In this document: one piece after another, positions 27,245-59,617 of the stretch
How the letters are laid out: each line of letters begins with the position of its first letter
Position numbering within the stretch: position 1 is the stretch's first letter
Virus record (IMG/VR): IMGVR_UViG_3300021399_000008
Coordinates: 52,329-116,328 of that record
Origin: a virus
Lineage: Duplodnaviria; Caudoviricetes
DNA: 64,000 bases
Direction: 5' to 3' (one strand)
Translations under genes and position numbers: made by a program
The notes under the pieces: model-generated
The model's database searches: none
The model's input: only the letters and a program-made list of their open reading frames with translations
What the model was told of the DNA's origin: nothing

Positions 27245-30200
27245 TTATGTCCAAATTAAAATACAGATATAGTTTATGAGCATACCCGGATCTTCTCGAA
27301 CCGTAAGCGTTAACACGTTATTGTTCTCCCAGTACGGAAACACAAACACAGAGTTGTTGTTCGGTATCACATACACTCTGGCTAAATCATATCCGAAAGC
27401 TGGAGGAGAAATTGTCACCTCTGAAGACGTGCCAGAGAACTCCGTTAATCTTATCTGCATAATCTTGTCTCCTGGAAGTTTTATACCGCTGGCGAACAGA
27501 TCCTCGAACAGACCAGTCGCGATAGTCGGAAGAAGTTCAGACAAATAGTTAGGCGAAAGCTTACTCAAGCGCAGAGTACCGTCAGCGATTCTTTCTCCAG
27601 ACATTTCACCATAGTTAATTTCTCTGGCGTTAAAGCCATTACCGCTTCCGAATTCGCGCCATATCCAGTTGCCAGATAGGTCCTTGGAGTTTGCGATCCT
27701 GAAGACCCCGCTGTTCATAGACATAGCGGACATCCCGTCGGGAGAAGACCAGACGTCGTTTCCTTTTCCGTCTGTGAACTTTGTAGATGTGCCGTTTGTA
27801 ATCCCGGTCATAGATGAATCGATACTGCCGCCGATATCAGACGCGCTAATCTGGCCGTTGTTGTTTATTGTCTTAGACCTGTCGTAGATCGAGAGCTTTC
27901 CTTTAGCCTCAGAAGCTACCTCGGCTATATGAGCCATTACGTCTTTGAACTCATGCTGATTCAGAAGAGAAAGGTTTGTGTTGATCTCGATGTTTGACCG
28001 CCACGGATTGTCGTAGCAGATAGAACTCTTATCGATATATGCCCACAGATTCAGGGAGATCTCAGGGTCAATAAGATGAGCTGCGTATTCAGTAGTGATT
28101 CTCGGCCAGTCCTGTTTATCTGAAAGCTGAGAAGCGTAATACAGCATATCTCTGTTTGAGCCATAAGGATCTATATACTGGATCTGGTACGAAGCCTCAG
28201 GTTTCGAGATCTTCTGGATCGCGTACAGAGCATCAGCGTAGAGTTTGTCCTCGTCGCCGTCTACATAGTTTGTCTTCGAGAGGTAGCCTTCTCTGTACAG
28301 CTCACCCAGTGCCACTTTCATGTTTGTTTCAAGAGAGTCGTACTTATCCTGAGCAGTCTTCATAGCCTGGTACTTTCCGATATAAGCCCTGTCTGATGTA
28401 TAGCGGAACTTGTTCATCATAGGAATCAGACCGTGTACTTCACTCGGCTTCACATGGAAACTGTTAATCAGATAAGCGAGCTCGTTCTCGATAACAACTG
28501 CGTTCTCGTAATGGTACGGAACTAAAGATTTGTGATTATACACAACGTCATCGAGTTTGGCGTAGAGTCTGAAATAGAAAGCTCCTTCTGGAGTTGTGAA
28601 CCCACCTGGATCGTAGTTGTCTATTCGGATCTGAACTCTTGATCTTCCGTAGAACGCAACACGACCTACACGGCTCCACGGCACTGACCACCTGTACTGT
28701 GTGTTTGACAGACATCTTATATAGTTCGACACGCCCCATGTACTATCTGTTGTCGAAGTGACTACGCCGTTTATATCCATCTGGTAATATTGTTTAAATC
28801 CCATATCGGCGCAGTCTGTAATCGTAGAAGCTACATACTGGGGTCCAGAGACAACAGAGCTTTTTACGTAGCTTTTAATCTCAAGAGTTGTCTGAACATC
28901 TCCGTTATACTGAGTTACGTATCTCTTTGTTGTATTCAGAACAAGTCTTCCGTTATTCGCGTAAAGATTCTCCGCAGTAGAGAATACATGAAGGTTTCCG
29001 TCTCCGATATCCATAGCGAATCTGGAAGGGAGAAACACATTAGAGTTCGAGGTGTCTTTATATTTTCCGAGGTTATCCAGATCGCTCAAATGGCAGTCAT
29101 AGTTCTCATAAACACCCGTGTAATAAAGGTCACGCTTATTGCAGCCTTCAATTACGATACCCATATTGTCGGCTATACGAGCCTCTTCAGTTTTCTGGTA
29201 TTCGTACTTTTTCCAGACGTCGCCGCCAGTTCCAGATGTATACTGGACTCTGGCCACTGTCCCATCGTATTCTCTGTAATGGTATTCATACTGAAGGTTC
29301 TGAGTCTGAATCTCTTCGTTAAATACCCAGACCTGATCTGTGTTTTTATATTCCTGAACAACGAATACAGGATACCATCTCGTGTCTCCGATTGTTTTGT
29401 TACAGAAGTACAGCTGCCCGTAGTTCTCAGGGCTGAACACATAACACCAGGCGTAACCATTAATCGAACTGATTGAAGGTCTCTTACTCGGACTGTCAAC
29501 GAAATATACTGGGTGCTTCGTAGTTACAAACGTAGTGACTTCGTCCAGAGTCATTACGGCTGACTCGTCAGAAGATTCAAATGAGCCGATATACCCGTTT
29601 ACGTTATTTGTTTTAAACAGGTAACCTACGAGGTTTGTGTTCGTATCTGACCGTTTATCTGAACCGAAGTAATAGTCAGAGGACTTCAGCCAGAGAGTAA
29701 TTACTTTCGGGTTTTCTATATCGTCGACTTCCTTAATGTAGGTTTTATGCCACAGGAAGTCTTTTGATGAATTAAACATATTCGAGCCGCCGTACTTTGT
29801 CCGTTCAGTAGCCCAGGCACCGCCGCCATATTCTCTCTTATCGATATAGTAGCTGGTAGTAACGTCCCCTTCAAGAGATAGTTCGAGACTCATATCGAAC
29901 AGGTAGAGAACGGAAGCTTCCGGGTTTATAGCGTCTCCGTTAGCGAACAGAGCAGTAGCTGGCTTCCACCTGAATCTCTTCTCAGGCTTTACGTTAAACT
30001 CAGTCGTATATGCTACGTTCTCATATCCAGCTGTATCGAGCGTAATCTTCACATAAGATCCACTTGTATTTACTGTGAAAGGCTGGAGCTTAACGTAGTC
30101 TACAGATCCAACAAGTTCCGATACCTTCGTTAATTCCTGAGTAAAGGCCAGAGACTTCTCCTGAATTTCCTCAAGGAGTTTCGGTCCCTGTCTCTGAAAG

Positions 30201-31591
30201 TTCGCGATAGCCTGAATTGCGTCGTCAGTTAATAACCCTACCTCGTCGTAATAGTTAAAGTCCATTACGAATGAGAACCAGTTCCGTACATCTGTATTGG
30301 AGATATAGGTAACTGTAGGATAGCTGAGGTTAGGAGCTGACGGTTCGTCATAGACACGGTAGGCCATATCGACTTCATAGTTATAGTCGGGGTTCAGAGG
30401 ATCTGTTCCAGGGTCCGAAAGATCAGGGTCTTCAGGAACGAGTTCGCCGTCGTCTTCGCTGACGAGATCATCGTCACCGCCAGAAGAACTGGAAGAACCT
30501 GAAGAGCTAGAAGAACCAGACGAGCCGGAGGAAGAACTTCCGCTCGAACCAGAACCTTCTACGTACAGAACCGTATCGTCGTAGACATACATCATAGACG
30601 CAGGATCCAGTTGAGAGAAGGTAAACGTGTGCTGACTCGTAATCTGACCAAGAGGAGCTTCAGTCGGTTTAAAGTACTTCGTAACGACAATACCCTGTGC
30701 GTTCGTATACTGGAACCTGATCTCAGTTTCTGGGGCTACTGAGCTGTTAATCCTGAACTTCAGTTCCTTATGGGTACATTCGTCGATTCCGCAGTATCCG
30801 TTCGTCTTATCGCCGTAAGCTCCATAGGCATACAGCTTTGTTCTAAGATTCTCTGTGTTCAGAGTGCGGGTAATATTCTTTACATTATTTCCATAGTGGA
30901 GTTCGATTACACCTTTAGCCGTCGTAACGTCTGGAACAGTTCCGTCCTTCGGTTCAGAGAAAGGATTCATCGGGACAATATCTACCGTCTTCGAATCTCC
31001 TCTGAAGATAGGTTTCGCATCAAACAACTCACACATCTTAGAAATCAAAGAGAAGGCCCCGGTCTTCTCAGAGGCTACGAGTGAACGGTACTTAACAGTT
31101 ACACCGTCGTCCTCATAGAACTTCGAGACAACACCTTTCGTCCAGCCAGTACCTTCGAGGATCACGTCCAGGAAAGTATCTGGGGTTCCGACGTTATTGC
31201 CTTCGTCGTCTGAGAATACAAGACCGAGGTTCTTATACTTCAGCTGCTGCGAAACATGTCCGCATATAGCTGTCACTGTTCTGGATTTGTTTGAGTGCGT
31301 AATCTTAGGTTCAGAGATTATGTACCATTCAGTCTCGTCTTCGTTAATCAGTCTGACTTTATAGTCAGCCTTCATAAACTGAAGACGAGGATTCTCTTCC
31401 TTACCGTTCTCTGTCTCGATAACTGTCGGGAGAGTAAATGACTATTCTCGCCAGCCGTTACGGGAAGTAGACTCAGTAATACCAGAAGCCTGACCTGAGA
31501 CATCGCTGTTTGAATCATAAAGGTTACAGATCTTATTGCCGGAGTAGTCGAATATATCGATGATACATAATCGTTTATAATTTATCGCCAT
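27245..31591 (-). CDS. tail spike / Tal-like baseplate hub protein (1448 aa); TAG at 31442
   Basis: Follows Dit; RNGWRE*SFTLP, YGNNVKNITRTLNTENLRTKLYAYG, WIWREFGSGNGFNA. Confidence 0.75.
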
Positions 31592-31602
31592 AAAATCGCC
31601 TC

Positions 31603-32700
31603 TTAATAGAATGTGGGTTTGTACACAAAATTTAATCTGGTTATGCTCATCTTTGTAACAGGACGGATCGAGAGTTCATTCATTCTGAAGATAACGGCCA
31701 TACCTTTAAGATCAGCTGATAGGGAAGTGCCTACCGTGATCTTATTTGTATTTGTGTTAACTGCGGTAATCTTATATCTCGTTCCTCCTGACTGTGCGCA
31801 GATATACTGACCAATCATATCTTCTGAGAGTATCTGGTTATTTACAGATAAGTTATTAGAGTTTTTCGCGCCATTTACGAAGACATTTCGGTAACAGGGA
31901 AATGCCGGGGAGAGCTGGATAAAGCCGAAATCGTGGTATAAAAACCCATAAGTTACTGTAGAACCGTTAGTAACGAACGTCTTACCGTTAAGTCCGTCGC
32001 ACACAATCCACTTTCCGACATTCGTAGTATTCGACTTCGTCCCGCCGATAAACTTCATCTGCTGGCCAGTAGTAAGGTTGTCTATAATAACTCCTGTTCC
32101 AAAGTCTCCTGCGATCTCAACAGCTACATCTGCCCTGGCTGAGCCTGGGTTAAAGAGCTGGAAGGTTTTCTCGGCAGTAACAGGAGAGGAGCTTGTAGCG
32201 AAAGAAGTAGGAAGGTTCCACGAACTTCCTGCCATCATGGCTGAGTTCAGATAGATATCCTTACTGTCAGGATCTGTCGCTTCGATATACATTTTGTCAC
32301 ACCGTGCGAAAGGGTAGTAACAGCGGACTGTCATACTCTAGAGACCGTTCTGAGGATTAGGCAGCATCTGAATAGTAGGAGGAGTAATCACTGTTGCCAT
32401 ATAGTAGTTCCACGGTCTGCGTGAGAAAATAAGTTTCGCTGTTTTACCCGGAGCAAATATCTGGTGGAGTCGGGCCATAAAGCCGTCCTTCACGTTCTGT
32501 CTTTCGAATACACAACGGAGATTGAAATCCTTCGGCTGAAAGGTAAAGCCGTAGTAGTAGCCGCCTTCGTGTCCGTCAAACTTCTGCTCGTGCATAATCG
32601 CCTGAGCAGGACCCCAGACATAGACGTCAGCGTTCTCAGGCACATATGTTAATCCAAGAGAGGCGATATCAATCCCGTCAAAAGTAAAGCCGCCTTTCAT
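31603..32700 (-). CDS. distal tail protein (Dit); TAG at 32338
   Basis: MKGGFTFDGID...KLIFSRRPWNYYMA...NGL*SMTVRCYYPFA; follows the TMP. Confidence 0.8.
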
Positions 32701-32715
32701 ACAATCACCTCTGAC

Positions 32716-32757
32716 AAAAGAATACCCCTGTACTCCTTGTTGAGTGGAGTACAGGGG
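32716..32757 (-). terminator. terminator after the tape measure gene
   Basis: CCCCTGTACTCC/GGAGTACAGGGG. Confidence 0.65.
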
Positions 32758-32767
32758 GAGTGTCTGT

Positions 32768-35700
32768 TTAAATGTTAGAGACACTGAGACCATATCTGGA
32801 GATCTCTTTCACAAGAGCGTTACCGACGTTCCTGGCTACGGTTTCGTAGTCGTCGTCAGTGTTAATCTCTGCTTCATTTATCTCAATATGGATGTCTCCG
32901 ATTGTGACATTCGATTCCGAACCTAAACCAGATATAGCTGCGTTCGTAAGAAGTCTGGGGAGGCTGATGTACTTAGCCATCTCCATCATCTTCGCGAGGT
33001 CTGCGTCCATATCTGTACTGTTCAGGGTCGAAAGAAGATCCCGTGTTTTCGCGATCCTGTCAGCGAAGTAGTCGACTCTGGCTGTGCCGGGAGCATCGAT
33101 AAAGTCGTCGAGAGATTTCGTAGCGTAAGCGTCGAGAATCATCTCGGGATCAGCAGGAGTACCGTCGACACGGATAGCACCCATCCGACTTCTGACCATT
33201 TCGGTAGAAGGGATGTAACCACCTTTAGCCATAGCAGTGTGAGTTACGGAAGCAGGACCCATATAGCCAGTCTTCTGGATAACTCTCTGATTGGCATACA
33301 TCTCGTAGAGTCTGTCGTACCATTCAGAGTCTATGATGTGAACGTCATTATTGTTCGCATACAGACGACGTTTCCTCAGTTTAGCCTCGTTATATTCAAC
33401 TGGACCGTAAACAGCCTGATTCGTTTTGTTATCCCAGAGGTAGTAATACATCTTAGAAGGAGCCGTCTGAGTCTTCGGATTAGGATAAGTTCTCCTCGTC
33501 TGAGTTTGAGTCTTAGGTTTCTGTTCATCCTCGCCAGGCCCAGGTCCGTTGTATGGGATATAATTATCTTCAACAGGCTGATCGTATGTCGTATCGTCGC
33601 CATTACCAGTGCTGTACGTTCCATAGTTACCGCTGTTGTCATCGTAGTGCGTATAAGACGCATCATCCTTCTGACCTTTCAGCCAGCGGTCATACATCTG
33701 GGACCACTCATACTCGTACATCTGTTTCTGATATTCAGAAGCATTCTTGTACGTATCAGTGTTCCTCATGTAGTTCATGAACGTATCGTTACTGGTAAGG
33801 ATACTGGCAACCTCTGTCCAGTACGTATCTGTGATACCCTTCATCTGTTTGTAGGTATCTTCCCAGCTGCGAAGCATCTGGTGTTGCGAATCCTCAAGAC
33901 TCGTAATGTATTCATCGACGTTATTCTTGAGCCACTCAAACAGTTCTTCCTGAGACAGAGCCATAACCTCGTTTACTTCTTCCGCGAAGTTCTGCTCGTT
34001 TGAAAGCATCTCCTGCATATACTCGTCGCCATAAGTAATACGATCTTCATATCCCTGGATCTGGTCTTCAAGAGAAGCCTTCTGAGCAGCTGCCTGTTCG
34101 TCCGCGATATCCCACGCGATTTCCTTTTCGAGAGCCGCGATCTTTTCACGGAGAGCTGCCGCATCTTTGGTACGGGTAGAGTCCATAGAGATAGAGGCAT
34201 ACTGCCGCTGAAGTTCTGCGAGTTCTTCGTACTTATTGGCTTCATCCTCTGCGTTCTTTCTGCGCTGGAGTCGCTCATCGATAAGCTTTGACTCATCGGC
34301 TAAAGCCTGCTTCTTCTTATCGAGGTCGCGTTTAATCAGATCCCACTCGTTCTGGTAGCGTTTCTTTATCGCTTCGAGAACGGTCTTCTCCATTTGAACG
34401 GTAGCATCAGCCATATCCCGTTCTTTCTGTTTCTGGGCTCTGATCTCTTGGTCAACAAGATTCTCAAGGTCAACACGAAGCTTAATAATAGCCTGTCTGT
34501 TTTCCTTGATTTTCCTGTTATTCGCAGCGATAGCGTTATTCGCAGATTCGATAGCTTCTTCATAATTAAGGATTGTTTGATAGAGATTGAACCAGTCATC
34601 TGTACCCTGCTGAGTTACAGCCAGCTGAGCTCTGAGCTGATAAATCATTCCTTCAAGAGAAGCTTTCGTTCTCTCCTGGGCCTGGTTCTCCAGTTCAAGC
34701 ATACGGTTATAGTTCGTAATCTCTTCCTGAGTTTCATAGTACTGTTCCTGACTCTGGATCATCTTGATCTCGTGGTCAAGAAGTTCCTTCTGTCTCTTTA
34801 TAGATTCAAGAAGTTTCTGAGCGGCTGTCTTTTCCTTCTTCTGAGAAGTAGGTTTATTGTAAGTATACTGCTGGTTCTTCTTACCGCCGCCGAGCTGACT
34901 CTTGGATTTGTATATAGAAGTTGTCTGTTGGTTATTATTCTTTTTGTTTTTCTCAGTAACAAGTTGCGTCTTAATGTTTCCGTTCTTGTCCGTAGAGATA
35001 TCCAGTACAAGACTGCCGACAACTCCTTCGTTTTCTGCCAGCTTATCGAGAATTTTCTGCTTGTATTGATCGCAGAATTCCTGAAGGTCAGTAAGGTCGA
35101 TTGTTCCGTCTGCGTTAACGTGCGCTTGGATCCATTCAGCAAGTTCAAGAGGTTTGTCTTTAAAGACATTCATTAGTGCCTCTTCGAACATCAGCCTTGT
35201 AACTTCAGCGTACATTGCATATTTTTCCTGAGCATTCGCCATAGCGGCATCAATAATCTCTTCCAATCCAGCAGCATCTGCGGCTTTAATTCTCTCAATA
35301 TCAACATTACTGAACTGAGAGATAGCTCCGAAGATCTCGTCGGCATGAGCCATCTTCGAAACTTGGGCTCCGCTCTTGCCTCTCACGTCATCCATAGCAA
35401 TAATGAGATCTTTGATACGGGTCATATCGTCTCCCATATCCTCAATTGCTTTGTTTACTTCCGTTTCAGAACCGTGCAGATTTGTAAACACGCTCACAAT
35501 GGAATCAGCCATAGCGTTTCCTTGGACTTCTGCGCTAGCCCAGTCAGATATCATTTCCTGATAGAGTTCCTTTTGTTTATCAGCTGTGAATTCAGTCTCT
35601 CCTGCGAAGTCGCCCATCAGGCTGCTCATAGCTTTGAAAGAACCGTTGAGCTTTGTGATCATAGCATTCATAGCCGGATCAGACATAGCCTTCTGGAATC

Positions 35701-38700
35701 GTTCAGCGTTGTCAGCATCATCTGGATTGAAGATACCCTGACTGAGCTGAGACATAATATCAGACCCGAAGATAGAGTTCATCGTATCTACGCCTCTGCC
35801 AAGCATAAAGTTTTCTCCGCTGATGCTGGACGCAGCTGCCGCAGCGAGATCGTCATTGTTCACATACTGAGATCCCTTAGAGAGAGCTTCAAGAATAGCG
35901 GAAACCATAGAGTCGCTACCTGCTAAACTCTGCACTCCTTCCTATGTCATGCCTTTTTCCTGAAGGAGTCCCATAGCATCGTTGTAAGTTCCTGTACTCT
36001 TGAATGCCTCAATAAGGTCGAACATCGAAGTAAGAGTTGTATCTCTGTTTGCTTGATTCGTGATATAGTCATTAGCAACCTGATCTGCAAGCGAAACGGG
36101 AGTGTACGTGGAAACACCAGCTTCATCGTAGATCGCGTACCTTCTGCGATTCTGATCTAATACACCAGCTTCTCCCTCGGATCCGGCTTCAAGCCTTGGA
36201 GGCGGGATCATATCACCGTTATAGTCAACATTGTGCCTTACACCAAAACTATAGTCGCCAGTTCCAGCTAAACTCGTAGCCATAAGACCTAGAGTGGGAT
36301 CGTTAATCAATCCAGATGTAACCATCTCCTGGATCATCTCAGGAGTGATAATCAGTTTCCCATTGCTCGCATACTGGCTGGCAATCCTGTTATAAAGAGT
36401 AGGATCGGTTTCAAGATCGGCAAGGAACCGCTCACGCATTGTAGCGCCGCCGTAGTTGAGGAATGAATCATCTGCTGATTGATTAAGCAGGTTCAGAAGG
36501 TATCCAATTCCTTCGGCGTCCATCTTCCTGATTTGGTCTACATCGACATTAGATTTAGACGCAAGGAAGTCGGCTTCTGCTTTAGTTAACTCTTCGCCAC
36601 TCTTACCTTCGGCTGAATGTGTGATGTCGCGAATCTTCTCGACATTAGCCATCTCGGTCATGTAATCGCCGAGAGCTGTAATAGCTTCAGCCGCAGAACC
36701 AGAGAGTCCTTTGAGCGTCTCGGAAACTTTATCTATAGACTCGTTGAATTCGTTAGCTCCTTTAACACCGTCGAGAATGAAAGCATTAGCGAGCTTCTTG
36801 ACTTCATCTGTAGAAAGATTGAGACCTTTGCGTACCTTTTCGAGGATGGGTTCAAGTTCAGGGAAAGCTTTCTTTAAAGCTTCGAGCTGACCAGCCCCGC
36901 CTTCTTCAAGATTGAATGCGTTCAGACTAGACTGTCTGTTCTGTTTCCCGAACAAAGAGTTATCGACATTTCCTGTTATCATCTGGCTGAGCCAATTGTT
37001 CCCGAATATCTTAGAAAGCCAAACGTTGTAATCGTTGTTCCCGTACTGGTTCGTTCCAAGAACGGCTGAGTTAAAAGCTTTAACCAGTTCGTCGACAGTC
37101 ACGCTCTTATCTCCGTTGCTGGCAGCAGCAAGGAGATTGGAGAACCCTGTATTCTCTTCCAGGAACTTAGTAGCTAACTCGTTGTTGCTGAAGTATTTTT
37201 GGAAGTACTCAACAATAGCGTCAGTTGTTTTGAGCATTCCGCTATTCATGACGCCGAACATACCTTGCGTCATTTTTGTTGTCCTGTTGGTCTCATCCAT
37301 TGCCTGTTCTCTTGATGTGAATACGTTATCAAGAAGTGATTTACCTTCTCCGAGCGTAATGTCGCCTTCGAGCTTGATAGTGTCTGGCTTGATTACGATA
37401 TTACCGTTTTCCAAAGCAGTCACGAAAGAGAAATTCCCAGAGTAACCGCGAGCTTGTGCTTCGGCAATTATATTCTGCAGATACTGGTTTCCTGTTGCGC
37501 CGGCAAATTGGCTGGCTTGATCAAAAGACATAGTCCCAGTCTTTGCGAAGTTAAGCGAAGTAAGAGTATCCCAGTTCATCAATGAACTCAGATCGGCAAT
37601 AGTCATCGTATCTTTTTTAATAGCTTGCTTTATTGAAACTTTAAGACTTTCGGCTATTACCTTGCCTACGTTACTATTAGCTCCAGAAGAAGCCTCGTCC
37701 GCGATTCCTGTGAATATCAGTTCAATAACATCAGCGCCGAGTTCTTTAATCTGAGCTTCTTTCATTCCAGTGATTTCTTCGATAAGAGCAAGCCCGTCTG
37801 AATCAAGAGCAGAACCAGAACGCCCACGGTTACGAGTGACTATCGAGTTCATATCGGCGTACTTCTGAATATTTCCAAAGACTTCACCCATAGCTGAGAG
37901 CTTAGCCTTTGTTGAACTGGAAGTTAGATTCGAAATCGACTCAACAACTTCTTGAATGTGCTGATTGTATTTGTCAACCGATGTTATACCTTCGGAAATA
38001 AAAGCTTGAGCTAAGGCTAACTGCTGTTCTTTTGTGACGGTTTCACCAGCAGAAAGAGTGTTGAGTACTTCGGTTAACCCTGAATATTTACTTTCAAGCT
38101 GCCCTATAAAATCAAGTATACCCTGATCTTCTGTAGTGCCAAGATAGAAACGTCCTGTATAAGTGCCGCTAAGCATCTCGCTTAACCAGTCCTGGCCAAG
38201 TAACTCGTCCATCATCCTGGAATATTGCTCATGGCTAAATGAGTTACGCCCTGTGGCTGCATCATTCAGTTGACGTCTAAAATCGTCAAAGCTGAAGAAG
38301 GAACTGCCACTCTGCAGAGAATACCACATGTTGAGAAGCGTAGGATTTTGAGAGAGAATAGAAGGTAAATTATCCACAACTTCTCCGTATTCGCTTGTTA
38401 ACCCAGAATTGAAAGAATTGATGTCTGAATAATGTTTAGCTATATTATAGAATTCAAACAACGTGTCAGTAAAAAGAGGGCTTTCAGCGGACTTATTTAA
38501 AACAAGACCTTCTACGGTTTTGCTTGGGTCGTAATACACCTGCTGATTATTTTTATTTTTTATATCGTAAGCAGAGATCCCATTCGTTCTTGCGTAGTTT
38601 AAAGCAGCTTCCTGCGTTTCAAAACCCATCCCGCCAACGTTAAACGCATACGCTGAAGCATCGGCCTGTCCTTGCAGCATAGCAGCACGAGTAGCCGGAT

Positions 38701-41700
38701 CCGCATACCTTAATTGAAGAGCGAAAGTACGCGGCGTATTATACATCTAGTCTGGCAAGTTATCGTAAGATACGCCTTCTCTAAAATGCCCGTTCTCGTC
38801 CCAGATAGCATTTCTTGTGAGGTTTGTCAGTGCGCTGGTTACTACGTCTTTATCTCCAGGAGTGTATGTCGCAACAACGCCTACAGCTTCCTGTATAAGT
38901 TCATCGACAAAGTTTTTCTCAAGAGTAGCCCAGTTATCCTGAAGCTTACTTCTGTGCGTACCCGACACAAAATCAGTTCCAAATGAATCCAATAAGTAAC
39001 CAAACAGGTTACCTATAGCATCATCGGAATTTGCTCCACGGAAAGACTTAAGCCCGTTGTCTAAATCGTCGATAAACATTTCAGCCATCGATTTGTCGCC
39101 TGACACATACGGGGACATGTTCAGTCCAGAAGGCGCTAATTGCAACACTTCATTTAAAGAAGTCTTAACTTGGGATATATAAGATTCTCTATCTGGAGAG
39201 CCTTCGAGGAAGTTTTTGTTTTTAAAGTTAAGCAGAATGTTGCCTAACTTTTTCGCGTCTTCCAAATTGTACCCAACAGAACCTTCAGGAATTAAACCTA
39301 ATGAAGAGTTAAGTATTCCGAATTGAGGGCCATAGTACGATTCGTTTGCTGCATTCTTAAATACTTCTACGCTCGAGTATGTGCGGGACTTCTTTAAATC
39401 ATTTAGTTTGTGACTATACTCCATCCCGAAGTTACTCATAGCCCACTCGTCGGCAAGAGCTAATGCTGTGTCACTTGTAGCCTTATCGAAATCACCTGCT
39501 GATTTCTTTGCTTCGGAAACAATCTTTCGCCATCTCTCAAGAGTGTTTGTTGTAGTGTCGAGATTCTTGTTGAGTGACGGGAGAGCCGTAGTTAAATCTT
39601 TGATATTTTGTTCAAGCTCTTTAGTTTCCTTGGCTGATAACTTGGAACTACCAGAGAAGTCCTTGTATTTATTGGCTAAAACATCAGATTCTTTCAGGTA
39701 CTTTCGAATGGTATCAGATTGCTGATTCCTATTATTTACGTAGGTGTTCAGCTCAGAGATCTTAGTACTAGACTCCGCAGCTCTAGATGAAGATGAGCCA
39801 GACGGGATAGCGCTTCCAAGTAATCCAGCTCCAGCAACAACAGCGCCACCAGCAAGAAGGCCAAGCAAAGTACTAAGAGGACTAGATACGCTATGAACTA
39901 CAGCCATAGCAACGCCGAGAGCAACGACAGCAGTGGTTATTGCTCCGATTGTTCCAATAGCTTTACCACCAAGAGTAAGTACGTTTTTCAAACCGTTCAG
40001 AATAGTTGTTCCTATTTCAATTACGCCAGTTAATACACCATCGTCTTCAAGAGCCAACACAAAACTGTCAAACGTAGATCTGAGTTCCTTCAGCCTTGCG
40101 TTAATTGACTCGATCATAATCTCATACTTGCTCTGCGTGATACCAGAACTGTTCCCAGATAAGCCGAGGTATTTAGCAAATGTCTCTCCGTTATCTTCCG
40201 ACAATCCTTCCATAAGCGTATTAAACATGTTAGCGCTTCTGGTTTGTGCAAGATTAGAAGTAACAGCTGCCTTCTGGACATCAGTCATCGAATTCCACTT
40301 CTGAGCTACTTCAAGAAGGATTTCGCTGGCAGATTTAAACTCGTCCATACCCGCGCCTTTACGCATCTCAATACCAGCAATCTTCAGAGCTTTTTCTACG
40401 TTATTCAGCGTAGTCGTTTCTCCGTTAATCTCCTTAGAGTAACCACTCATGGTAACATTTCTCATTCGGGAGAAGATAGTATTAAGAGCTGTACCGACCT
40501 GCTGACCACTGAGCTGTGTCATAGAGGTCATGACAGTAATCATTGAGTTGAGCTCGTTGTAAGACACGCCAGCAACTTTAGCTGAAGCCGCACACTTCTG
40601 CATAGCTTTCGAGATTTCCTCTGCTGTTGTAGCAGCGGAGTCGCCGAGCGCTACGAGTGCGTCCATAGCCTCTTCAGCGCTTCCGACAAGATTATTCCTT
40701 AAGGCAGTTGTAATAATCTTAGTTGCTGTTGTAGTCTTAATCTGAGCAACAGTTGCGAATTTAACTATAGCATCAGTCTGAGAATCGACTTCAGCGTCAG
40801 AAAGACCTTGACGATAAAGCGCCGAAGTAACATCAGCCACCTCTGATGTAGAAGCTCTAAGGTTAATTGCTTTATTAACCACACCAGTACGAATACTCTG
40901 CATCTCTGCATTTGTTTTCATGGTGATTGCCTGGATCTCAGTCATCGAAGCGTTGTATTCCATCACAAAGCGTTTCGCTTCGTTAATAGCTTGTTGAAAT
41001 AAACGTCTTCCGAACTGCTGAGTTAAACGGCTAACTCCAGCAATAACAGTATTAAGACCAGCGGAAAGTTCAGCATGTGTACCAGTAAGCTTATCAATAG
41101 CTGCTTCATTTTCTTCTATTGCTTTTGTGTATTTCTTGATATCGATCTGAGCTTGCTCGTATCGCTCATCTGTCGCTGAAATACCTTGGAGTCCGATAAC
41201 CTTCTCATTAAGACCTGCGTTTATCTGCTCCAGTTGTTTAGCCTGGGCTTCGTATCGATCAAGCGATTGTCCGTATAAACCAGTACGGCCAGCTGTTTTG
41301 CCGAATCCTAATTTGCGAAGATCGGCATATTTCTCAAGCTCAGAATCTACTTGCCTGTCGTGCTCAGTGCTGAGTAATTTCGCATATTGCTCCGAATCTA
41401 GTTTATCTATAGCGGATTTCTTCGTAGTATACTCGTCTTTCGAAATGCCGCCTGCTTTGTATAACTTCTCAAGATCTTCGTACTGTTTGTTAACGCTGTC
41501 TTTGAAGTTCTTAATAGCCTGTCCGTACTTATGTAACGGGACGTCTGTGCCGTTCTGTTTCGCAAATAGATCAGAGGTTGTTTCATCGAGAGATTCTGCA
41601 TACTCTTTATAGAACTGCTCCCTCTTCTCTTTCATTTCCTTTTCTTTTTCGACGGCTTTCAGGTAAGCAGCTTGGTCTGACGAGCTCTCCCACTCTTCTT

Positions 41701-44700
41701 TTCCATTGATCTTTGCGCCGTTCTTCTTGCTAAAGTATTCAAAACTTAACCCAGCCTGCTGTACTGAATTGGTTACAGCCTCAAGCAGAGAACTTCTATT
41801 TCTGGCATTAACATTTCCTAGAACATTATTATCAAGGAAGTTCGAGGCAGCTATAAAGTCGCCGCTGATAGCATGGTTAAGAGCTTGTTTGTTTGCGAGT
41901 TTCGCGTTAAGGTATTGAGTTTCAAGATCTTTGTAATCCTTTTCGCTAACCTGCTCCTTAAGCCCTTTATAGTTTGTTTTAAACTGTTCCAGCTCGTAAT
42001 CGTAATGAGAGAACCTGCTGATTTTCTTAGCTTCATCGTCTAAGTTCTTATTTTGTTCCTTATTCATTCGCTCGATGAACGAATAGGATTCCTCCATCGC
42101 TCTGTTATATCTATCCTGAATTACGTGAACAGGAAGCCCATCGTAAGAACCAGGACCAGATGAACCAGAAGGAGGATTGTCATCATCATACCTTTTGTTC
42201 TTCCTTTTTTGTTTACGGCTGGATCCTTTATTTTTGCGCTTACCTGTCTGCGGAGGAGGTGTAGATTCTGCAGGAGTTTCTTCTTCCTCATCATCGTTTA
42301 GTCCTTCGACGCCCTCGTATTTAGCGGTCTCTTTTGCGAGAGCCGCACGAACAGAACTGTAGTCTACGGCTTTGCCTTCTTTAATCTGCTCAGTTACGAC
42401 GTTCAGAATCTTCGCTACTTCGTTGTAGTACGCAAGAGCTTTTGCGCCCTGTTCAGCAGTATATGCCTGAGTATCAATCTTAATACCACCATCAGGGTTC
42501 TTCAGATTAAAGTTGAGATAACCAGTAGTAGATGTTTTGGAAGTTCCGTCTTCGTTAAGTCCTTCTCCTCCAAGAAGAACCGTTCGTAATGTTTTCCCGA
42601 ACGAACCTTCGTAAGTGCCCTTATTAGAACGGTCATTCAGAGCTGCGTATAAGATTGCCTGAAGTGGGTTGTGCGCACCGTTTGACTTATAGTCGAGACG
42701 CATAATCTGCCCGTCTTTATTTTGGAGAACTACGTCAGTAGCTGCAGTGGCCTGATCTACGTCGGACGGGAGATCCCAAGCATTCTTATGTCTTTGTTCG
42801 GTAGCTATAACCTTGTAATCCTGAAGCATCCCCATAGACTCAATAAGACGCTCACGGCCAGTCTTAATCAAGTCATCTCTACTACTGTTAAATAATTCCG
42901 GGTGATCTTTTCTCGCCTGAGAGATAAGCTCATCGAACTTAGCCAGACCTGCATCTACAGCTGCCTGTTTCGCTGAATCAGATCCGGCTTCGTTTTTATT
43001 CTGGCTTTCTATCCGTTTATTACCCCATGCTTCCATAGCGTTGTGCATGATGGTTCCGAATTCAGATTCGGTCGTCTTCTCATCGGCGGGTAAAATGCCT
43101 TGGAGCTGAGCTACAAACTTGTTCGGATCACGAATGAAGTTTCCGAGATCTGTAATAGAAAATTTGGTTGTTGTAGCTCTTTTGTTAATGCTGGTATTTG
43201 GATCGTTCTTTATACCTAAAGCTTTACGACGCTCCTCCATTTCATAGAGTCGCTGTCTCTCTGCCTGGTATTCAGGGTTAGCCTCATCTGTGGACCATGC
43301 GGTTGAATGGTATCCATGGTCAAGAATATATTGACCATTCTCGCTGAGTCCTAAATTAGCTTCGGTTAAACCACGCTTCTTCAGAATCGCTAAACTTTCG
43401 GAATACTTTCTCCACTTTGACAACTCGTCAGTGTTATCGGAGTCTGACATCTCGTCGTTATATCTCGACATAAGAGCTTCGAGTTCTGCGACGTCTTCGT
43501 TCGATACGTAGGCAGCTCTACCAGTGTAAAGCTGTTCCATGATGCCGTACCACTTCTGGAGATACTGAGCCTGAGCGGAGTTATTACCTTTACCAAGTTG
43601 ATTCTGAAGAGCTCCAAAGAAAGCTTCGAGGTTTGTGTAGTTTCCTTTTCCTTGCGAACGTTCGGCGTTAGCTGTGAGAATAGACATCATGCCGTTCGTG
43701 TCGTAGATCGTAGGCATAGCACGACCTTCAGCCAGAAGAGTAGCATAATCATAGTCATTATTCTGTACAGCTCCGGTCATCTTTGAAAGAACAGGAGCAA
43801 ACGACTTACCGATTTCTCTTGTCCACGCTTGGTCAAACTGAGAGATTTCAGCGAGATGTTCTTCCTTAATACTGGAAGCCGCATTATACGATTCGCTGTT
43901 TCTGATAGCCATCTCTGCAGCTCGCATAATCTCTTCTTTGTTCTTCTTATTGACGTTGACAATACTTGCGTCTTGCGTGTTCGTTTGAGCCATAACATTT
44001 GTAGCTATTGCGGCTCTGTCGTAGAAAGACTGAACAACATCGTCTCCGACGCTTTTGTATTCATCCGCTTCTGTTTTTACATCTTCGGCTGATTTATCAA
44101 TAGCGCCTTTTTCCTTCTCCATTTTCTTTCTTGCGCTCGATAAAGCTTCAGACCAGAGTTCGTTCATATCGACAACTGCTCTCATAGTTTCGCCAACCAT
44201 AAGAGTCATGAAGTCGCCGTCGAAGTCAGCTGTACCAGACTGATAAACAGAACCTCTGGAGAAATATGATACGTTAGGATCGGCACCAAACTCTTCTAAT
44301 AGCTTGCCCCAGTCCTCTGCTCTTGAGATTCTGGCTTTATAATTTTCTTCTGATTCACCGTTCTGACGTTCAACCCTGAGAACGTTAAGAAGCTCTGTGA
44401 TTTCACCAAGGTTAGAAGGAGTTCTGCCTCCGGCAATATTCTGAGCTTTGATGTTTGTCGCGATCTCGGAGTCTTTCAGAATCGTAGAAAGTCCGAAGCT
44501 GTTAATCTGAGACTTCAGAACATCCTGAGCGTAAGGAAGAAGCATGTTGCCGGGAGACATAGCCGCAAGAGCTAACGTTGTCTGCCCCGGCATGTAGATA
44601 GCACCAGTTGACAGTTTATCGGTAAATGCCTTTCTTGTTGCTTCGATTCTTGCCTGAGCTTCCTGAGACGAAAGCATGTCGTAGTTGCCGTTGCGGATTG

Positions 44701-47176
44701 CTTTATCTAATTCTGAATCTGTATTGAAGACGTGCTTGATCTGACCTGGCACGGTTTCAAGATCTGTGAGATATTTATCAGCAGCAATCTATCTGAGTCT
44801 GTTAAACTCAGGACTGGCTTCCAAATGTCTTGAAAGCTGAGCAGGAATAAAGTCTTTGTCAATATTCCAGTTAGCGGAACTGCGCATAACAGTTGTGCCA
44901 ACTCTTTTATTTAGTTCGTAAATCAGGTCTTCTGCTTCCTGGTAACTGAATTTCCTGCCGTCGTTATGTTTGAAGATCACATCCTGATTCTTTAATGTGC
45001 TTGAATCAGTAATGCCACCATATTGTTCATCCATAACGTCGACGAACTTTTCACGAAATTCGGCAAGCTGTTCCGCGTTTTTTAATGCTTTTTCTAATGC
45101 GTCTTTATTTGACAGCTAAGGCATCCACTTCGCTACATCGGCTTCATTTGCCATAACTGTAGGCATGTAGAAATGGTGTTTGCCTTCGCTGTCCAGTGTT
45201 GTAGCACCAGACGCCTTTAGAAATCTTCTATAATCAAGAGGGAGCAGTGTTCCTTTTATTGATGGCATACGAGCTTGTACATCTGCAGTGAGATACTTAG
45301 TATCAAAAATATTCATTCCGTCGGCTCTGTCTTTCGTCGGAGTGCCTTTCCACTTGTAATACGCCTCCAGATTTACAAGAGCCGTGCGAGGAACATCAAA
45401 TCCGTATTCACTCTAATCCTCGCCAGTAGACCAACCTTTACTATCGTAGTTGAGTCCTTTTTTTCGATTTACATATTTTTCACTTTTGAGTGTGTTGCTA
45501 CTAAAAGATGTAAAAGGATCGTAGCCAACTTTATCCACGGCTGCTTTGCGCATATTTCTTTCAATGAAATACACTTCACCGTTTGCGTTTTTACCGCCGT
45601 ATACATAATCATGTCCATACTGAGAAAACCCATTATTAATAAGATCGACAGCCTGCTGCCACCGTTCCTTATTAATCATACGCTTCCCGTTATCCCACAG
45701 GAATGTTTCTTTCCCATTCTTCATGCCTTTCTCGAAAATGTCTTCAAGATCAAGAGCGATGACGGCTGGTGTTCCATCTTTTGTGCCATATGTATTATGG
45801 CCAGACATTCCAAGAAGACGGGTGTTTCTACTTTCAGAGACATCAATAAACCCGTGCTTCGTCGGGATAATTCTCTTGCCGTTCGCATCGAGTTCCTTCT
45901 GATCGAGAGGAATCGACACTCCGTTTTTAAGTTCAGTAATTGTATATTTCGGAGCCTGATACCGTTCCATCATAGGATCGATAATAACTCTTTGAGATCT
46001 GGTGTACTGAGCTCTGTTGGCGTCGCTGATCGTCTTCTGAACTCCAAGATACGGATTCAGATACTGATATTTACCAAGCGCACCCATTGCCTCATAGCCC
46101 TGCTCAACTCGTCTGGATGTTTTATTCGCAAGACTTTTCTGGACTTCAATGTCTTTTGAATTAAGATCTTTCCTGAATCTTGGCGCACCTTGAAGAGCTA
46201 CTCCGAATTCTTTGAAGACATACCCGGCAATCTCATCCATCTGATCCTGAGTAAACTGTTCGAGAGCACGGAGGTTACCCTCACTCATAAAACCTGCACC
46301 AGAACGGACAATGCCTTTTCTGAGAAGGTTGTTGTGAGCGGCCATCTTAACGAGTTCAGCAGTAAGCTCTTTAGATACTAAACCGTTATTTCCTAAAGAA
46401 GCTCTGGTTGTACCACTTAAGTCGAACTTTAAATTCTTAAAAACATCAGGAAGTCTTTCTCTGAATGTATTGTAGTTTCTTGCGTTTCCGATAGTGATGG
46501 CGCCGTAAGAATGAGCAGCCGCCGATCTCATATAATCCTGACGCATCGACTTGTCCAGCATATTAGATACCATAAAGTCGATCAGTCTGTCGGATTGTTT
46601 CTGAGTACCAAAACCAGAAAGAACGGAAGCAGCCTGTGTGTACTGCTTGTTCTGCTGGAGCATCTTACGAATACCAGCATCTGTTAAACCGGAACCGTGA
46701 GCACCCTGCATCATGTGGCCAGTAAGATTACCGACAACATTTCCTAAGCTGGCTATCTGCTTATATGTAGTTACGAGATCTCCACCTGCAGCATTAAGCT
46801 CTTTATAAAGATCGATACCTTTACGTAAGTCCTGAAGATCAGCTGAAGCGAGACCAACGGAACGAAATATCGTATTAGCCTGATCCTATCCAAGATTCTT
46901 ACTGGTAATCTGTCCAATCTCTTTCACTGAACTTGTAAGACCAGTAATTGTCCTGGACATCATTGTCTGCATCTGGACAGGGAGTGAAGCGAAGTCTGTA
47001 TATAAACCTTTCACCTCTTCGCGAAGTTTGCCAACAGAACTGTTAAGATTAGACATTGTATCTTCGCTGAGAGTTTTAGATGTGTATTCCGACTGGGTAT
47101 CAATGAAATCCTTAAACGTTTTTTGAGCTTCATTTGTTTGTAGATCAAGCTCCATACTGACTTTTGCGTCTGCCAT
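32768..47176 (-). CDS. 4802-aa tape measure protein fused to a two-barrel RNA polymerase-like domain and a PD-(D/E)xK domain; six in-frame TAG
   Basis: Seven track ORFs share one frame separated only by TAG (46886, 45413, 45116, 44789, 38747, 35942); TMP core near 40100-41000; position between tail chaperones and Dit. Confidence 0.88.
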
Positions 47177-47316: not shown

Positions 47317-47775
47317 TCAGATTTTTCTATCTCTCTCCGCGAAGGAATAGTCCCTGGCCTGATACTGTGCCAGTTTTTCTTTATTGTCCATAACGACTTC
47401 ACGAACCGCGATATCCTTCTCGCGCTGCTTAACTTCCTCGTTAAGCTTCATATACTCGAGAAGGTTCTTCATCAGTTCGTTCGTCTGTTTTTCTTCCTCA
47501 GGCTTAATCGTTTCGTTAACAACTGTATTAATCCATGATAACAGGGGAGTGAGCTGGTCATTCTTCGCATTACGCATCTCAACCTCAAGCTTCAGGATCT
47601 CGTACAGTTCGTCCTGAGGATCTGACTCATTACCGAGATACAGTCTCTGTTCCCGAAGGAACTGTCTGTATCTGGGCTGAAGGTAGGAAACACCACTGTA
47701 CTCATCTGTCTCAACCACTGCATCTATCGCAGCGTTTACGACTTCGTAGTAATTGGGCTTAACAACTTCGGACAT
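47317..47775 (-). CDS. hypothetical coiled-coil protein
   Basis: ORF track; AAGGAG RBS. Confidence 0.7.
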   Translation of the reverse strand: MSEVVKPNYYEVVNAAIDAVVETDEYSGVSYLQPRYRQFLREQRLYLGNESDPQDELYEILKLEVEMRNAKNDQLTPLLSWINTVVNETIKPEEEKQTNELMKNLLEYMKLNEEVKQREKDIAVREVVMDNKEKLAQYQARDYSFAERDRKI

Positions 47776-47780
47776 CTGGA

Positions 47781-48077
47781 TTATTCTCCTTCCTCAGGAT
47801 TATATACTCCAGTTACACGACCACCTTCAGGAGTACCTGGTCCCATCTCAATAGGACGGTTGGATACGGAAGCAGCTTCAAGTTCCTTATACTTCTCAAG
47901 GAAAGGATTCTCAAGAGCAATAATCGCAAGCTGTTTCGCGGCATCCAGGAATCTATTATAAGAAGCCAGAGCATCGACACCTTTCCTCTGGGCATTCCTG
48001 TATTCGTGAACCATTGTGTAGTAGTAATCGGCAGCAACCTTGTAAGCAGTTTTATTTCCCTTATTATATCCACTCAT
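47781..48077 (-). CDS. hypothetical protein
   Basis: GAGGAG RBS; operon packing. Confidence 0.7.
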   Translation of the reverse strand: MSGYNKGNKTAYKVAADYYYTMVHEYRNAQRKGVDALASYNRFLDAAKQLAIIALENPFLEKYKELEAASVSNRPIEMGPGTPEGGRVTGVYNPEEGE

Positions 48078-48078
48078 A

Positions 48079-48483
48079 TTAAGACTCCTCTTTCTTATCT
48101 TTTTTCGTTAAGGACACAGCGTCCTTAAGCCAACCCATAGACGCTACCGTACTGGCAGAAGCTTCGGGTATCTTAACTGCACCAGAATTAATCGCGTTAA
48201 AGATCGCGTTCCCTCCACGTTTCTTTCCAGTAGAGAACGGGTTCACACTCTCGATTACTTCTGTTATTGACTTACCAGCTTTCTCATCAAACAGCGTCCG
48301 TCCCAGCAGATTAGACTGACTTTCGAAGCTGACGCGTTTCCGCAGGACGTGCAGGACTTGATTGAAAAAGTTCACAGACATATTGTTTATCTGTTTCTCG
48401 TCGACGATTCCAAGATAGACGGCAACAATAGCGACCGCGTCTTCTAACGTTATTGGTTCGTCCTCTTGGCCTCCCGGTTTTTT
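48079..48483 (-). CDS. tail assembly chaperone, frameshifted (GT-like) portion
   Basis: The -1 frame from A AAA AAC (48483-48477) is open into ORF 48079-48381. Confidence 0.75.
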   Translation of the reverse strand, partial: KKPGGQEDEPITLEDAVAIVAVYLGIVDEKQINNMSVNFFNQVLHVLRKRVSFESQSNLLGRTLFDEKAGKSITEVIESVNPFSTGKKRGGNAIFNAINSGAVKIPEASASTVASMGWLKDAVSLTKKDKKEES

Positions 48484-48956
48484 GCGGCTTCCTCTTTCTC
48501 TTCGATCTTGTTTATACGGCGGTAGATCTCGAGGATCTTCTCGATATCCGCTGCAGTCATGTAGTCGAAGTTATCACGGACGAACTGTTCGTCGTCGAAT
48601 ACTGCGACCAGGAAGTCGAAGATAATCTGTAAGCCGTCTCGCTTCGGATCGTATACTCCCTGCTGAATCACAAAGAGTGTATCTATCGGGACATTCTCCA
48701 GAAGTCCTCTGGCTGAAGTCCAACCGATCCTGTAGTATTCAAACCGGGTCTCTTTTATTTCTCTGTCGATACCGTTTATCGTAATGATATTCTCGAGCTT
48801 ATGATCTACTGGCTGTCGATCACTTTTCTCAGAACCATTAAGGTCGGCCTTCTCGGCTTCACTCTTATTTAAGTCTGCTTCCTCGATAGCCGAAGCTTTC
48901 TACCCGTTGTCTTCAGATACTTCAGGCTACGAGTTCTTTACAGCCTTTCTGGGCAT
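48450..48956 (-). CDS. tail assembly chaperone (G-like); TAG at 48927 and 48900
   Basis: GAGGTG RBS at ATG 48956; follows the major tail gene; slippery site near the end. Confidence 0.75.
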
Positions 48957-49094
48957 AGTAATCACCTCTAGGATCTCTTCAGTTAATCATGTAATACAAT
49001 CGTAATATTTTAACGAATAAATTAATAAGTAGCTGAGGCAGGAACCCACAGCTACTTACACGGTTTTCTGTGCCGATCACCGTAAACGTCTTAT

Positions 49095-49129
49095 AAAAAA
49101 AGGGACTGCTGTTTATTGCAGCAGTCCCT
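49095..49129 (-). terminator. terminator after the major tail gene
   Basis: AGGGACTGCTG/CAGCAGTCCCT plus a T run on -. Confidence 0.8.
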
Positions 49130-49189
49130 GAGTCTCCCGGTTAAGCTGCAGTAACAGGTCTATTAAGCAGGAAACTAATCTGAGTTTAA

Positions 49190-50008
49190 TTACGGGTTAG
49201 GGGTTTCGCCGCCTTCAGCGGGAGCAGCCGCACCCTGACCATAGGCAGCACGGAAGGTTTCCTTGGTCATATAGAACATCTCATAAGCAGCGTCATCCAG
49301 ACGGCCAGGATCCTCGCAGGATACGGTGAAGTCAAAGGTGGACGGGCTCTTATAAGAACCGGACATAGTAGGCACCTGGGTAATACGGCCATTGAACATG
49401 TGCACAACCAGGTAATGGGTAATGCCAGCGTCGGTGCAGTTCTTGCCGTCGTTGTAGACGGGGAACACAGCGTACACTTCGCCCACAGCACTTGCGCTGT
49501 TGTCGATCAGGACAGTAGGCACGTTCGTTACTTCGGTCTCGTAGGAGACACGGACAGCGCCAGTCACGGTCGCGTCGAAGGTCTACTCCTTGCCGCTCAC
49601 AGTGTACACACCGTCAGAGGCAGTCTCGCCAGCGGTCATATTAGGAATGAACACAGTGCCGTCCAGAGGAGTGGAAGGCAGGGTGATCTTGTGGGTGGTC
49701 GCGTCGGGAGTAGCTTCGGTGTAGGCGATGATGGTCTTCTTGGCAGCGTTCTCGAAGTTCTGAGCGTTAGCCATAGCCCACAGCTCAGAGTCAAACTGAC
49801 CCACGGTGATGTTCATATTCATCGTGGACTGACCAGGGATCGTACACACAGCATACTTGGACCAGCCAGCGTTAACGGAGATAGAGCCGAAATCGATATC
49901 GCTGGTGAAGTTCGTCAGCTTATCAAACACGTACTTCTTGCCGTCGCACCTCTTAAAGAATAAAAGAGGGACGTCGACGATATATCCACGTAAAGCCTGA
50001 ATATACAT
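49190..50008 (-). CDS. major tail tube protein; TAG at 49583
   Basis: Two ORFs joined by SGKE*TFDA; GC3-rich codons; position and terminator. Confidence 0.8.
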
Positions 50009-50103
50009 AGAGTCACTTCTTTCTGTAAAGTTCGTTTATACTAACAACCCTATGTCCTCCTACAAACAACGAGCTGTTAATATCTGCGCACCCGAAATTT
50101 CTG

Positions 50104-50592
50104 TTAATAGACTTTATTAAACCAGAAACTTATCGTATATCTCGAGTAACCGACAGTTCGGGTAGCACTGTCCTTCTCGCCAGCAATTGTGAACTTGTAG
50201 CCATCTATATGCCCCCACTGGTCGACATCGATCTTTGTGAGGAGAATGTTCAGTCTGTTGGCGATCAGAGTGGTTCGGTTGTCGAGTGTGTCATTTGTCG
50301 CAGTATGCATATCATCATACTTGACATAGATGTCGAAGTTGAGGAGATGCTGTACGACATTCGGAACACCTGTGGTATTCTTCTGCTGAAAGCCGTAGAT
50401 AACTCTGACTTTCTGATCCGTGAGAAGCTCGCTCGTAGATCCAGTCTGAATAAAGTACTGTTCCACGAACTTATTGATCTTCACATTAGAAGGAATCAGC
50501 ATCAGAGTTTTCAGCTGCTCATCTTTAAAGATTCTCTGACGCAGAATCTTCTTCCATGTTTCAGCCCATGATTCAATTAATGTTTCGGCCAT
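50104..50592 (-). CDS. tail terminator/completion protein
   Basis: LNFDIYV...IANRLNILL; upstream of the major tail gene. Confidence 0.6.
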   Translation of the reverse strand: MAETLIESWAETWKKILRQRIFKDEQLKTLMLIPSNVKINKFVEQYFIQTGSTSELLTDQKVRVIYGFQQKNTTGVPNVVQHLLNFDIYVKYDDMHTATNDTLDNRTTLIANRLNILLTKIDVDQWGHIDGYKFTIAGEKDSATRTVGYSRYTISFWFNKVY

Positions 50593-50606
50593 ATATACCT
50601 CTCACG

Positions 50607-50942
50607 TTAAACAGGTCTGTAGGAAGTCTTTGCCTTCGCGTCGTTGAAGTAGAACTGGAACAACGTGTATGTGAACTCCTCTACTTTTGAGAAATCAAAA
50701 TCAATCCCGCCTTTAAGGTCTGGATCGAGTCTGATCTGTACGTCTATATCACTAAGCTGCTTCTCATGGTGACTGTCGCCAGTAGCCATTCTGAATAACA
50801 TAAACTCGTAGGCCATGTTGTCCATAAGGTCTGCGGCGTAGTCTTCCAGCTTCTTCTGTACGGCTGGATAAGCAGCTTTCATAATAGCTGATTCGAGCTG
50901 AGTGTCTGAGATATGAGTGTTGTTAGTCATAGTGCAGACCAC
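50607..50942 (-). CDS. neck-region hypothetical protein
   Basis: Gene order. Confidence 0.6.
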   Translation of the reverse strand: MVCTMTNNTHISDTQLESAIMKAAYPAVQKKLEDYAADLMDNMAYEFMLFRMATGDSHHEKQLSDIDVQIRLDPDLKGGIDFDFSKVEEFTYTLFQFYFNDAKAKTSYRPV

Positions 50943-51654: not shown

Positions 51655-51675
51655 CTCTATCTTCTACCTCCTTTC

Positions 51676-51990
51676 TTAACTGTCCCCTAACTTCGCTACA
51701 GGGACACCTTTATACAGAAGAACTTCAGGGAGTCGGACGATACTGTTTCCGAAGTTCAGGATCTCCCGTCTGAGTCTGAGGAACTTTTCAATTGAATCAT
51801 CGGACCATTCGTCGATAGGAGCGCCGTGGTTCATCTCAGTGAACTATGCCTCAATATCGCTGATCTAGTACATAAGATCTCTGCCTGTAGTTCTCGTATA
51901 TTCTTCGAACCCGGTACGTTTATTTACGGGCTCGTTTGTCTTTCGGTTTATATAATTTATCTCAACTTCAAAGTCCTTTAATCCGCTCAT
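51676..51990 (-). CDS. hypothetical protein with two in-frame TAG (51865, 51844)
   Basis: AAGGTG RBS; DLMY*ISDIEA*FTEM; fills an otherwise empty gap. Confidence 0.75.
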
Positions 51991-52017
51991 ATAATCACCT
52001 TTATTAACCGTTCTTAC

Positions 52018-52620: not shown

Positions 52621-52636
52621 GACAACGCCTCCTGTT

Positions 52637-53101: not shown

Positions 53102-53121
53102 TCCTCTCCTTGTCTGTAATC

Positions 53122-53159
53122 AAAAACAGGAGAGGCTACCCATAAGAGCAGCCTCTCCT
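53122..53159 (-). terminator. terminator after the major capsid gene
   Basis: AGGAGAGGCT/AGCCTCTCCT plus a T run on -. Confidence 0.75.
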
Positions 53160-59606: not shown

Positions 59607-59617
59607 ACGGATCCTCC

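Follow-up and report, generated by a model that had tools for sequence, protein, structure and literature searches.

A 64,000-nucleotide stretch of DNA (the window) from an uncultured SPbeta-related siphovirus of the gut carries a 4802-codon tape measure protein gene, the N-terminal part of which encodes a predicted single-chain two-barrel RNA polymerase domain. By analogy with a Thermus phage, we consider it likely that the product serves as a virion RNA polymerase, joined to the tape measure protein of a temperate, SPbeta-like siphovirus. The window is the final 64 kb of a circular record of 116,328 bp with a 127-bp terminal overlap (IMG/VR IMGVR_UViG_3300021399_000008). Positions refer to the window unless prefixed with C1, which denotes the whole circular record; G000 is the genome of this phage, and G001-G008 and the L- and P-numbers are relatives or homologous contigs. 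The fusion, the fold, the catalytic residues, their conservation and the gene layout were computed here.

We aligned the polymerase domain with 13 distinct homologues that share 20-43% identity. Nine residues of the catalytic motifs (G620, R636, K641, R918, P920, D984, D986, G987 and D988) are invariant in all 14 rows, which places these motifs beyond chance. An earlier sequence-only reading, which had proposed the polymerase, named a DxDGD motif that varies among homologues as evidence against it; the motif is invariant. The spacing of R918-x-P920 and D984-x-D986-x-D988 agrees with the signature [RK]xPx{20,100}DxDxD, applied by Chaban et al. as a filter for two-barrel polymerases (PMC10770324). 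Most homologues are uninterrupted tape-measure fusions of 3,300-7,300 aa without TAG, encoded by standard-code phages, so the fusion is independent of the genetic code chosen.

In a second line of evidence, AlphaFold models of two homologues, L007 and P0004, were compared with known structures, standing in for the domain of this protein. The L007 model, from a standard-code member (pLDDT 85.6, pTM 0.79), matched RDR2 with a Z score of 17.1 over 444 residues (root-mean-square deviation 3.7), followed by gp62 (Z 15.3), QDE-1 (13.6) and P23-45 gp96 (10.0), with the next match at 7.8. Foldseek likewise returned a two-barrel match (E 5e-8), and many of the lower-ranked structural matches of L007 were double-psi barrels. 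An ordered helical connector joins the two barrels of this model, which scored higher against gp62 and RDR2 than against gp96. For P0004, a 46%-identical allele modelled with a pLDDT of 60, the matches were QDE-1 (Z 14.8), RDR2 (13.2), P74 gp62 (11.7) and gp96 (10.7), with helical bundles at 8.4. The top five structural matches were all two-barrel polymerases, with up to 444 residues aligned. The absence of a double-psi barrel fold had been named as the other observation that would speak against a polymerase, and both homologue models match two-barrel polymerases far above background. It is almost certain that the domain has a two-barrel polymerase fold, and very probable that it is active as an enzyme.

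Neither single-protein nor profile queries retrieved a sequence match for the polymerase domain from the PDB. Pfam contained no match either, the best being a sub-threshold RNA-dependent RNA polymerase (RdRP) hit in one homologue (E 0.045). No match was obtained in an initial homologue search at near length or with a narrow pattern in a one-genome-per-species collection, and no tape-fused domain was matched in the cultured and annotated phage records searched, SPbeta included.

With TAG read as sense, 32768-47176 on the minus strand is a single open reading frame of 4802 codons, the length originally proposed. Translation table 11 divides it into pieces of 96, 433, 81, 2001, 934 and 1055 aa, with in-frame TAGs at codons 97, 588, 687, 796, 2810 and 3745. 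Four of these precede the catalytic triad, and without suppression translation would end at codon 97. The sequence-only reading had held that the fusion is visible only after TAG read-through; this is correct for the present genome but not for the standard-code relatives, where the fusion is unbroken. Polymerase and tape-measure core are encoded in the same frame, and the gene occupies the tape-measure position within a tail operon of the non-contractile type. An assembly artefact as the origin of the fusion was ruled out by the identical TAG positions in L001 and L016 and by the unbroken fusion in standard-code relatives. A contig of 16.9 kb from a different study covers the gene, but with a few small indels. 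Contigs from RNA runs that span most of the gene were dropped as evidence of expression, since they possibly represent DNA. The longest open frames of the family comprise 7,271 (G008) and 5,494 codons (G002). Frame breaks were seen in some copies of the fused gene (L004/L020, L010 and L003); that of L004 lies inside the nuclease domain described below, and the near-identical L014 is intact. Such breaks may be errors of assembly or natural splits.

The features of the protein and its surroundings are listed in Table 1. The motifs RADGM (45314-45328), VQARMP (45239-45280), GRTPSN and ADFDGD lie where the sequence-only reading had placed them, and a tape-measure core follows as it stated. What it missed was a nuclease domain between polymerase and core, as well as a third polymerase elsewhere in the genome. 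The nuclease motifs look intact by eye. Of the homologues tested, roughly half gave a detectable match to this domain: clear in L009 (E 4e-14), weak in L086 (E 3e-4, just below the cut-off) and faint in three others. Allele L002 has no nuclease domain. Given this patchy distribution, we regard the nuclease as accessory cargo. A charged low-complexity linker (residues ~1626-1680) separates the cargo from the tape-measure core. The hydrophobic helices behind the core occupy the same place in 12/12 full-length family members and are followed by ~2,300 more residues. A second hypervariable block spans residues ~2400-2900 (about 38500-40000), where identity to allele L002 drops to 27-58% between blocks of 85-100%.

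Table 1. Features of the tape measure protein gene and of associated genes. The terminase small subunit and the tube protein were assigned from position and homologues only.
Feature	Position	Strand	Remarks
Tape measure protein gene	32768..47176	-	4802 codons, six in-frame TAG; slot between tail chaperone and Dit/Tal genes
N-terminal lead region, residues 1-~519	45620..47176	-	Homologous across the family; part within P0004 model partly low-confidence
Single-chain two-barrel RNA polymerase domain (predicted), residues ~520-1310 (boundaries approximate)	43247..45619	-	Motif conservation, homologue folds, profile match to stand-alone paralogues
First-barrel motifs DG (residues 619-620) and R636..K641	45239..45328	-	G620, R636, K641 invariant 14/14
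RxP motif (R918, P920; GRTPSN)	44411..44428	-	Invariant 14/14
Catalytic aspartate triad D984, D986, D988 (ADFDGD)	44213..44230	-	Invariant 14/14
PD-(D/E)XK (RecB/Cas4-like) nuclease domain, residues 1339-1524	42605..43162	-	Pfam PF12705, E 1.6e-5, above cut-off
Tape-measure core PhageMin_Tail, residues 2102-2309	40250..40873	-	Pfam PF10145, E 1.1e-29; PHROG tape-measure matches
Hydrophobic helices, residues 2409-2458	39803..39952	-	Hydropathy scan; only predicted membrane segment of the protein
Head/tail operon upstream of tape measure gene	47317..60529	-	Putative terminase small subunit, large terminase, portal, major capsid, putative tube, tail chaperone
Dit-like and YomG/Tal-like tail-tip genes, downstream of tape measure gene	27245..32793	-	Siphovirus type
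Stand-alone two-barrel polymerase R2, 1042 aa	61852..64000, over the circular junction to C1:1107	+	Divergent from terminase operon
YonO orthologue, 941 aa	C1:17731-20556		33% over 720 aa to SPbeta YonO, E 2e-101
Tyrosine integrase	10034..11305	+	In-frame TAG near start; phrog_1, E 1e-68

Scanning the long frames of the whole genome for DxDGD revealed exactly three polymerases: the tape-measure domain, the stand-alone enzyme R2 and a YonO orthologue. The parallel motifs that had been claimed for R2 (ADG, FQLR, RYPSN and DTDGD) are present. The same three polymerases were found in each of G001, G002, G003 and G004, the YonO gene of G002 being split in its record. In these four genomes R2 lies 0.7-2.5 kb from the terminase genes, and the divergent orientation of the two is shared by all of G000-G004. 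Neither R2 nor the YonO orthologue contains TAG, which is not significant (~2.5 expected at the rate of the tape measure gene). The YonO orthologue carries Cys-rich, zinc-finger-like motifs at its C-terminus. YonO itself transcribes the late genes of SPbeta and is strictly DNA-dependent (PMC5467207). In the literature, we found no description of a phage in which three single-chain two-barrel polymerases occur together; in the part of the survey table of Chaban et al. that was covered, the non-jumbo YonO-type rows give pairs of polymerases.

Profile comparison of the fused domain with the R2 family scored 97.6% (E 3e-12, 492 columns), while the match to the YonO alignment was weak (39.5%, E 3e-4); R2 family and YonO matched at 100%. 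Against gp96 of P23-45 the score was 13%, hardly beyond the triad (hidden Markov model E 1.3), although gp96 entered as a single sequence, which makes the comparison less sensitive. Neither tblastn nor blastp of the fused domain against gp96 gave a match. Identity between the polymerase families is 10-15%. Judged by these comparisons, the fused domain is nearest to YonO-family enzymes and not to gp96, which suggests that a YonO-family paralogue was the source of the tail fusion, in an event separate from that of Thermus gp96. An independent fusion would parallel the proposal that gp96 and gp64 arose by duplication. The domain is, on this reading, one that works like gp96 yet stands outside the gp96 sequence family.

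The precedent that the sequence-only reading invoked is real: P23-45 gp96 is an active, tape-fused RNA polymerase, present at full length in virions and found bound to a 9-kb pre-early region (PMC10770324). That paper was the only one on tape-fused polymerases found in the literature, and none was found on the present lineage. Both gp96 (also in P74-26, G20c and TSP4; PDB 8H2M/8H2N) and the protein described here are giant siphovirus tape measures of ~5,000 aa with an N-terminal single-chain two-barrel polymerase and a DFDGD triad, and the homologue models match gp96 with Z scores of 10-10.7. P23-45, too, has a stand-alone polymerase, gp64, encoded in a pre-early region that is oriented divergently to the terminase operon. 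However, gp96 is reported to contain a metallopeptidase, whereas a nuclease is found here, and its connector is disordered, whereas the L007 model is folded continuously between the barrels. Moreover, the phage described here has three polymerases, where P23-45 has two, and further differs by its integrase, its TAG recoding and a host that is probably a gut member of the Bacillota.

Other known systems share part of this arrangement. The core motifs are colinear with those of YonO, from which R2 and the fused domain are more distant paralogues, but YonO is a free late-gene enzyme of ~100 kDa. Structural genes of the YonB, YomU and YomG type link the clade to SPbeta. The strongest structural matches, QDE-1 and RDR2 (Z 13-17), are eukaryotic RNA-silencing polymerases that are RNA-templated or use dual templates, at 11-14% identity. 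Phage N4 begins transcription with a virion-packaged polymerase and proceeds by a relay through successive polymerases, but its enzymes are T7-like and transcription of its late genes is carried out by the host RNA polymerase. A crAss-like phage, phi14:2, also packages a transcription-starting polymerase in the virion (gp66), which is not tape-fused and matched weakly (Z 5.7).

Reading TAG as sense raised the coding density of this genome from 0.76 to 0.84, compared with gains of 0.001-0.033 in six relatives, and a tRNA with a CUA anticodon is encoded at C1:39313-39389; both support recoding, as the sequence-only reading had it. This tRNA has a Leu-like scaffold, lies ~95 nt after a tRNA-Leu(UAA) and resembles that neighbour rather than tRNA-Gln. 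In standard-code homologues, the positions opposite TAG are mostly occupied by L, V, I, F, M and Y. The mean BLOSUM score for Q was -1.25 at TAG sites versus +1.9 at CAG (a small sample), which speaks against code 15 (TAG as Gln). TAG thus probably stands for Leu, our best guess from these sequences, with Gln unlikely, and the phage may use a TAG=Leu code instead of code 15. Its temperate lifestyle, also part of the original description, is supported by the predicted integrase and by relatives embedded in host DNA as proviruses. Sequencing runs containing this sequence come from gut metagenomes, which are bovine or sheep where a label is given, and the SPbeta-like genes indicate that the host is probably a member of the Bacillota.

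Comparison with close relatives revealed exchange of polymerase alleles. In its head genes L002 shares 97% identity with this genome, and near the 3' end of the tape measure gene 94%, but residues 1-1320 of the protein are just 43% identical. Similarly, L052 is 92-95% identical in the flanks of R2 and only 35% in R2 itself; the same R2 swap was found in L051 and L053. For both the fused and the terminase-side enzyme, near-identical phages carry diverged alleles that have been swapped. L002 and L051 derive from one sample, and there are hints that two alternative alleles, of tape measure and R2, travel together. Upstream of R2 (~61630-61730) lies an element of ~85 nt that contains T/A runs and a hairpin, a candidate promoter or packaging site; it is nearly identical in L052 and L053 despite the replaced R2 gene and adjacent ~100 nt.

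Just downstream of R2, we identified nine copies of a 22-nt motif with the consensus CGCTCCGCTTAGATTATGAAGA, all on the plus strand at C1:2701-9891 (0.15 expected in shuffles), four of them in tandem with ~75-nt spacing. The motif is kept in L051-L053 and is absent from G001-G005. It resembles a promoter of a phage polymerase, a candidate that is not assignable to the virion enzyme. Other genomes contain their own repeats of 25-30 nt, with 9 strong copies in G002, 7 in G003 and 6 in G004. They occur on both strands (genome-wide in G002), one of them lies beside the terminase gene, and they were for these reasons not counted as virion-polymerase promoters; they may be YonO late promoters.

How the fused enzyme might work can be sketched from P23-45, by analogy with which packaging, injection and activity are proposed. 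The tape measure protein would be made late, once the phage CUA tRNA permits read-through of TAG, and be built into the tail tube. Upon infection it would be ejected, its core would anchor in the membrane and the polymerase would refold on the cytoplasmic side. There it would transcribe the first-entering DNA, including the R2 gene beside the terminase (the order of entry is assumed). R2 would then transcribe the early genes and the YonO orthologue the late genes, in a three-enzyme relay. A wider proposal, plausible though short of even chances, is that three paralogous YonO-family polymerases (tail-injected, early and late) drive the entire lytic programme in a clade of temperate SPbeta-like gut phages, with a fusion independent of gp96, the first two enzymes swapped as matched allele cassettes between otherwise near-identical phages and, in the present lineage, the injected enzyme behind TAG codons read as Leu by a phage tRNA.

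Several observations weigh against an injected, active transcriptase. A D..K.G motif behind the triad, kept by most homologues, is degenerate in this allele, though active gp96 likewise lacks it; a few homologous fused loci are broken (L004/L020, L010 and P0008); and no copy of the 22-nt motif lies upstream of R2, so that no promoter for the virion polymerase was found.

Among the alternatives, an active virion-borne polymerase might be cleaved from the tape measure at assembly or ejection, or might mainly pull in DNA or prime replication, with the nuclease trimming ends. Many siphovirus tape measures are processed, the charged linker separates cargo from core, and the confident L007 model, continuously folded between its barrels, departs from gp96 in this respect. 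Against cleavage, the P23-45 domain stays in full-size gp96 (PMC10770324), and the tail module revealed no protease gene. We regard this alternative as unlikely.

Less probable still is a captured, dead or weak polymerase retained as filler to make the tail longer or to bind DNA. The identity of 20-25% between lineages, the allele swapping, the degenerate post-triad motif and the broken copies in some assemblies could be read in this way, but the invariant positions cluster on catalytic residues. In addition, the 600-codon polymerase core shows zero amino-acid changes relative to the close strain L001 (pS 0.018, few events), and the domain is kept in all lineages found. An injected effector that, together with the nuclease, targets nucleic acids of the host (by RNA-templated or untemplated synthesis, or in counter-defence) instead of transcribing phage genes is very improbable: the best structural matches are RNA-silencing polymerases and the cargo is swapped between near-identical phages, suggesting an arms race, yet the closest sequence relatives belong to the DNA-dependent YonO family, and no YonO structure was among the hits, so that RdRPs may rank first by default.

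So far, experiments have shown the fusion of a polymerase to the tape measure only in Thermus Oshimaviruses. The present lineage suggests that such a fusion arose again from a YonO ancestor, across gut phages and under the label 'minor tail protein'. It would allow the storage of a large enzyme in the tail tube, and its ejection, to be studied at mesophilic temperature, as well as the divergence of promoter specificity after polymerase duplication, for which the natural allele pairs (43% and 35% identical) are available. How the choice between lysis and lysogeny is made also becomes a question when a temperate phage carries a virion polymerase.

Further observations concern neighbouring genes. 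In the proviral relatives L088-L092, L011 and L012, genes for a UvrD helicase, a Panacea protein and an MqsA-like protein form an insertion immediately upstream of the tape measure gene, and the tail-tip genes are soon followed by host ABC-transporter genes. The window itself encodes a Panacea (SocA-like) antitoxin with an in-frame TAG (11953-12441, minus strand) and a C5 cytosine methyltransferase (15682-16839, plus strand). A ThiF/E1-like gene and a reverse transcriptase gene lie just upstream of the YonO orthologue (C1:11496-16235; L030), and their position is kept in G001-G004 at 40-50% identity. Finally, a 13-nt motif with a complementary arm occurs in four intergenic copies (C1:22181, 22497, 22984 and 23343), which probably represent small structured RNAs or degenerate tRNA T-arms.

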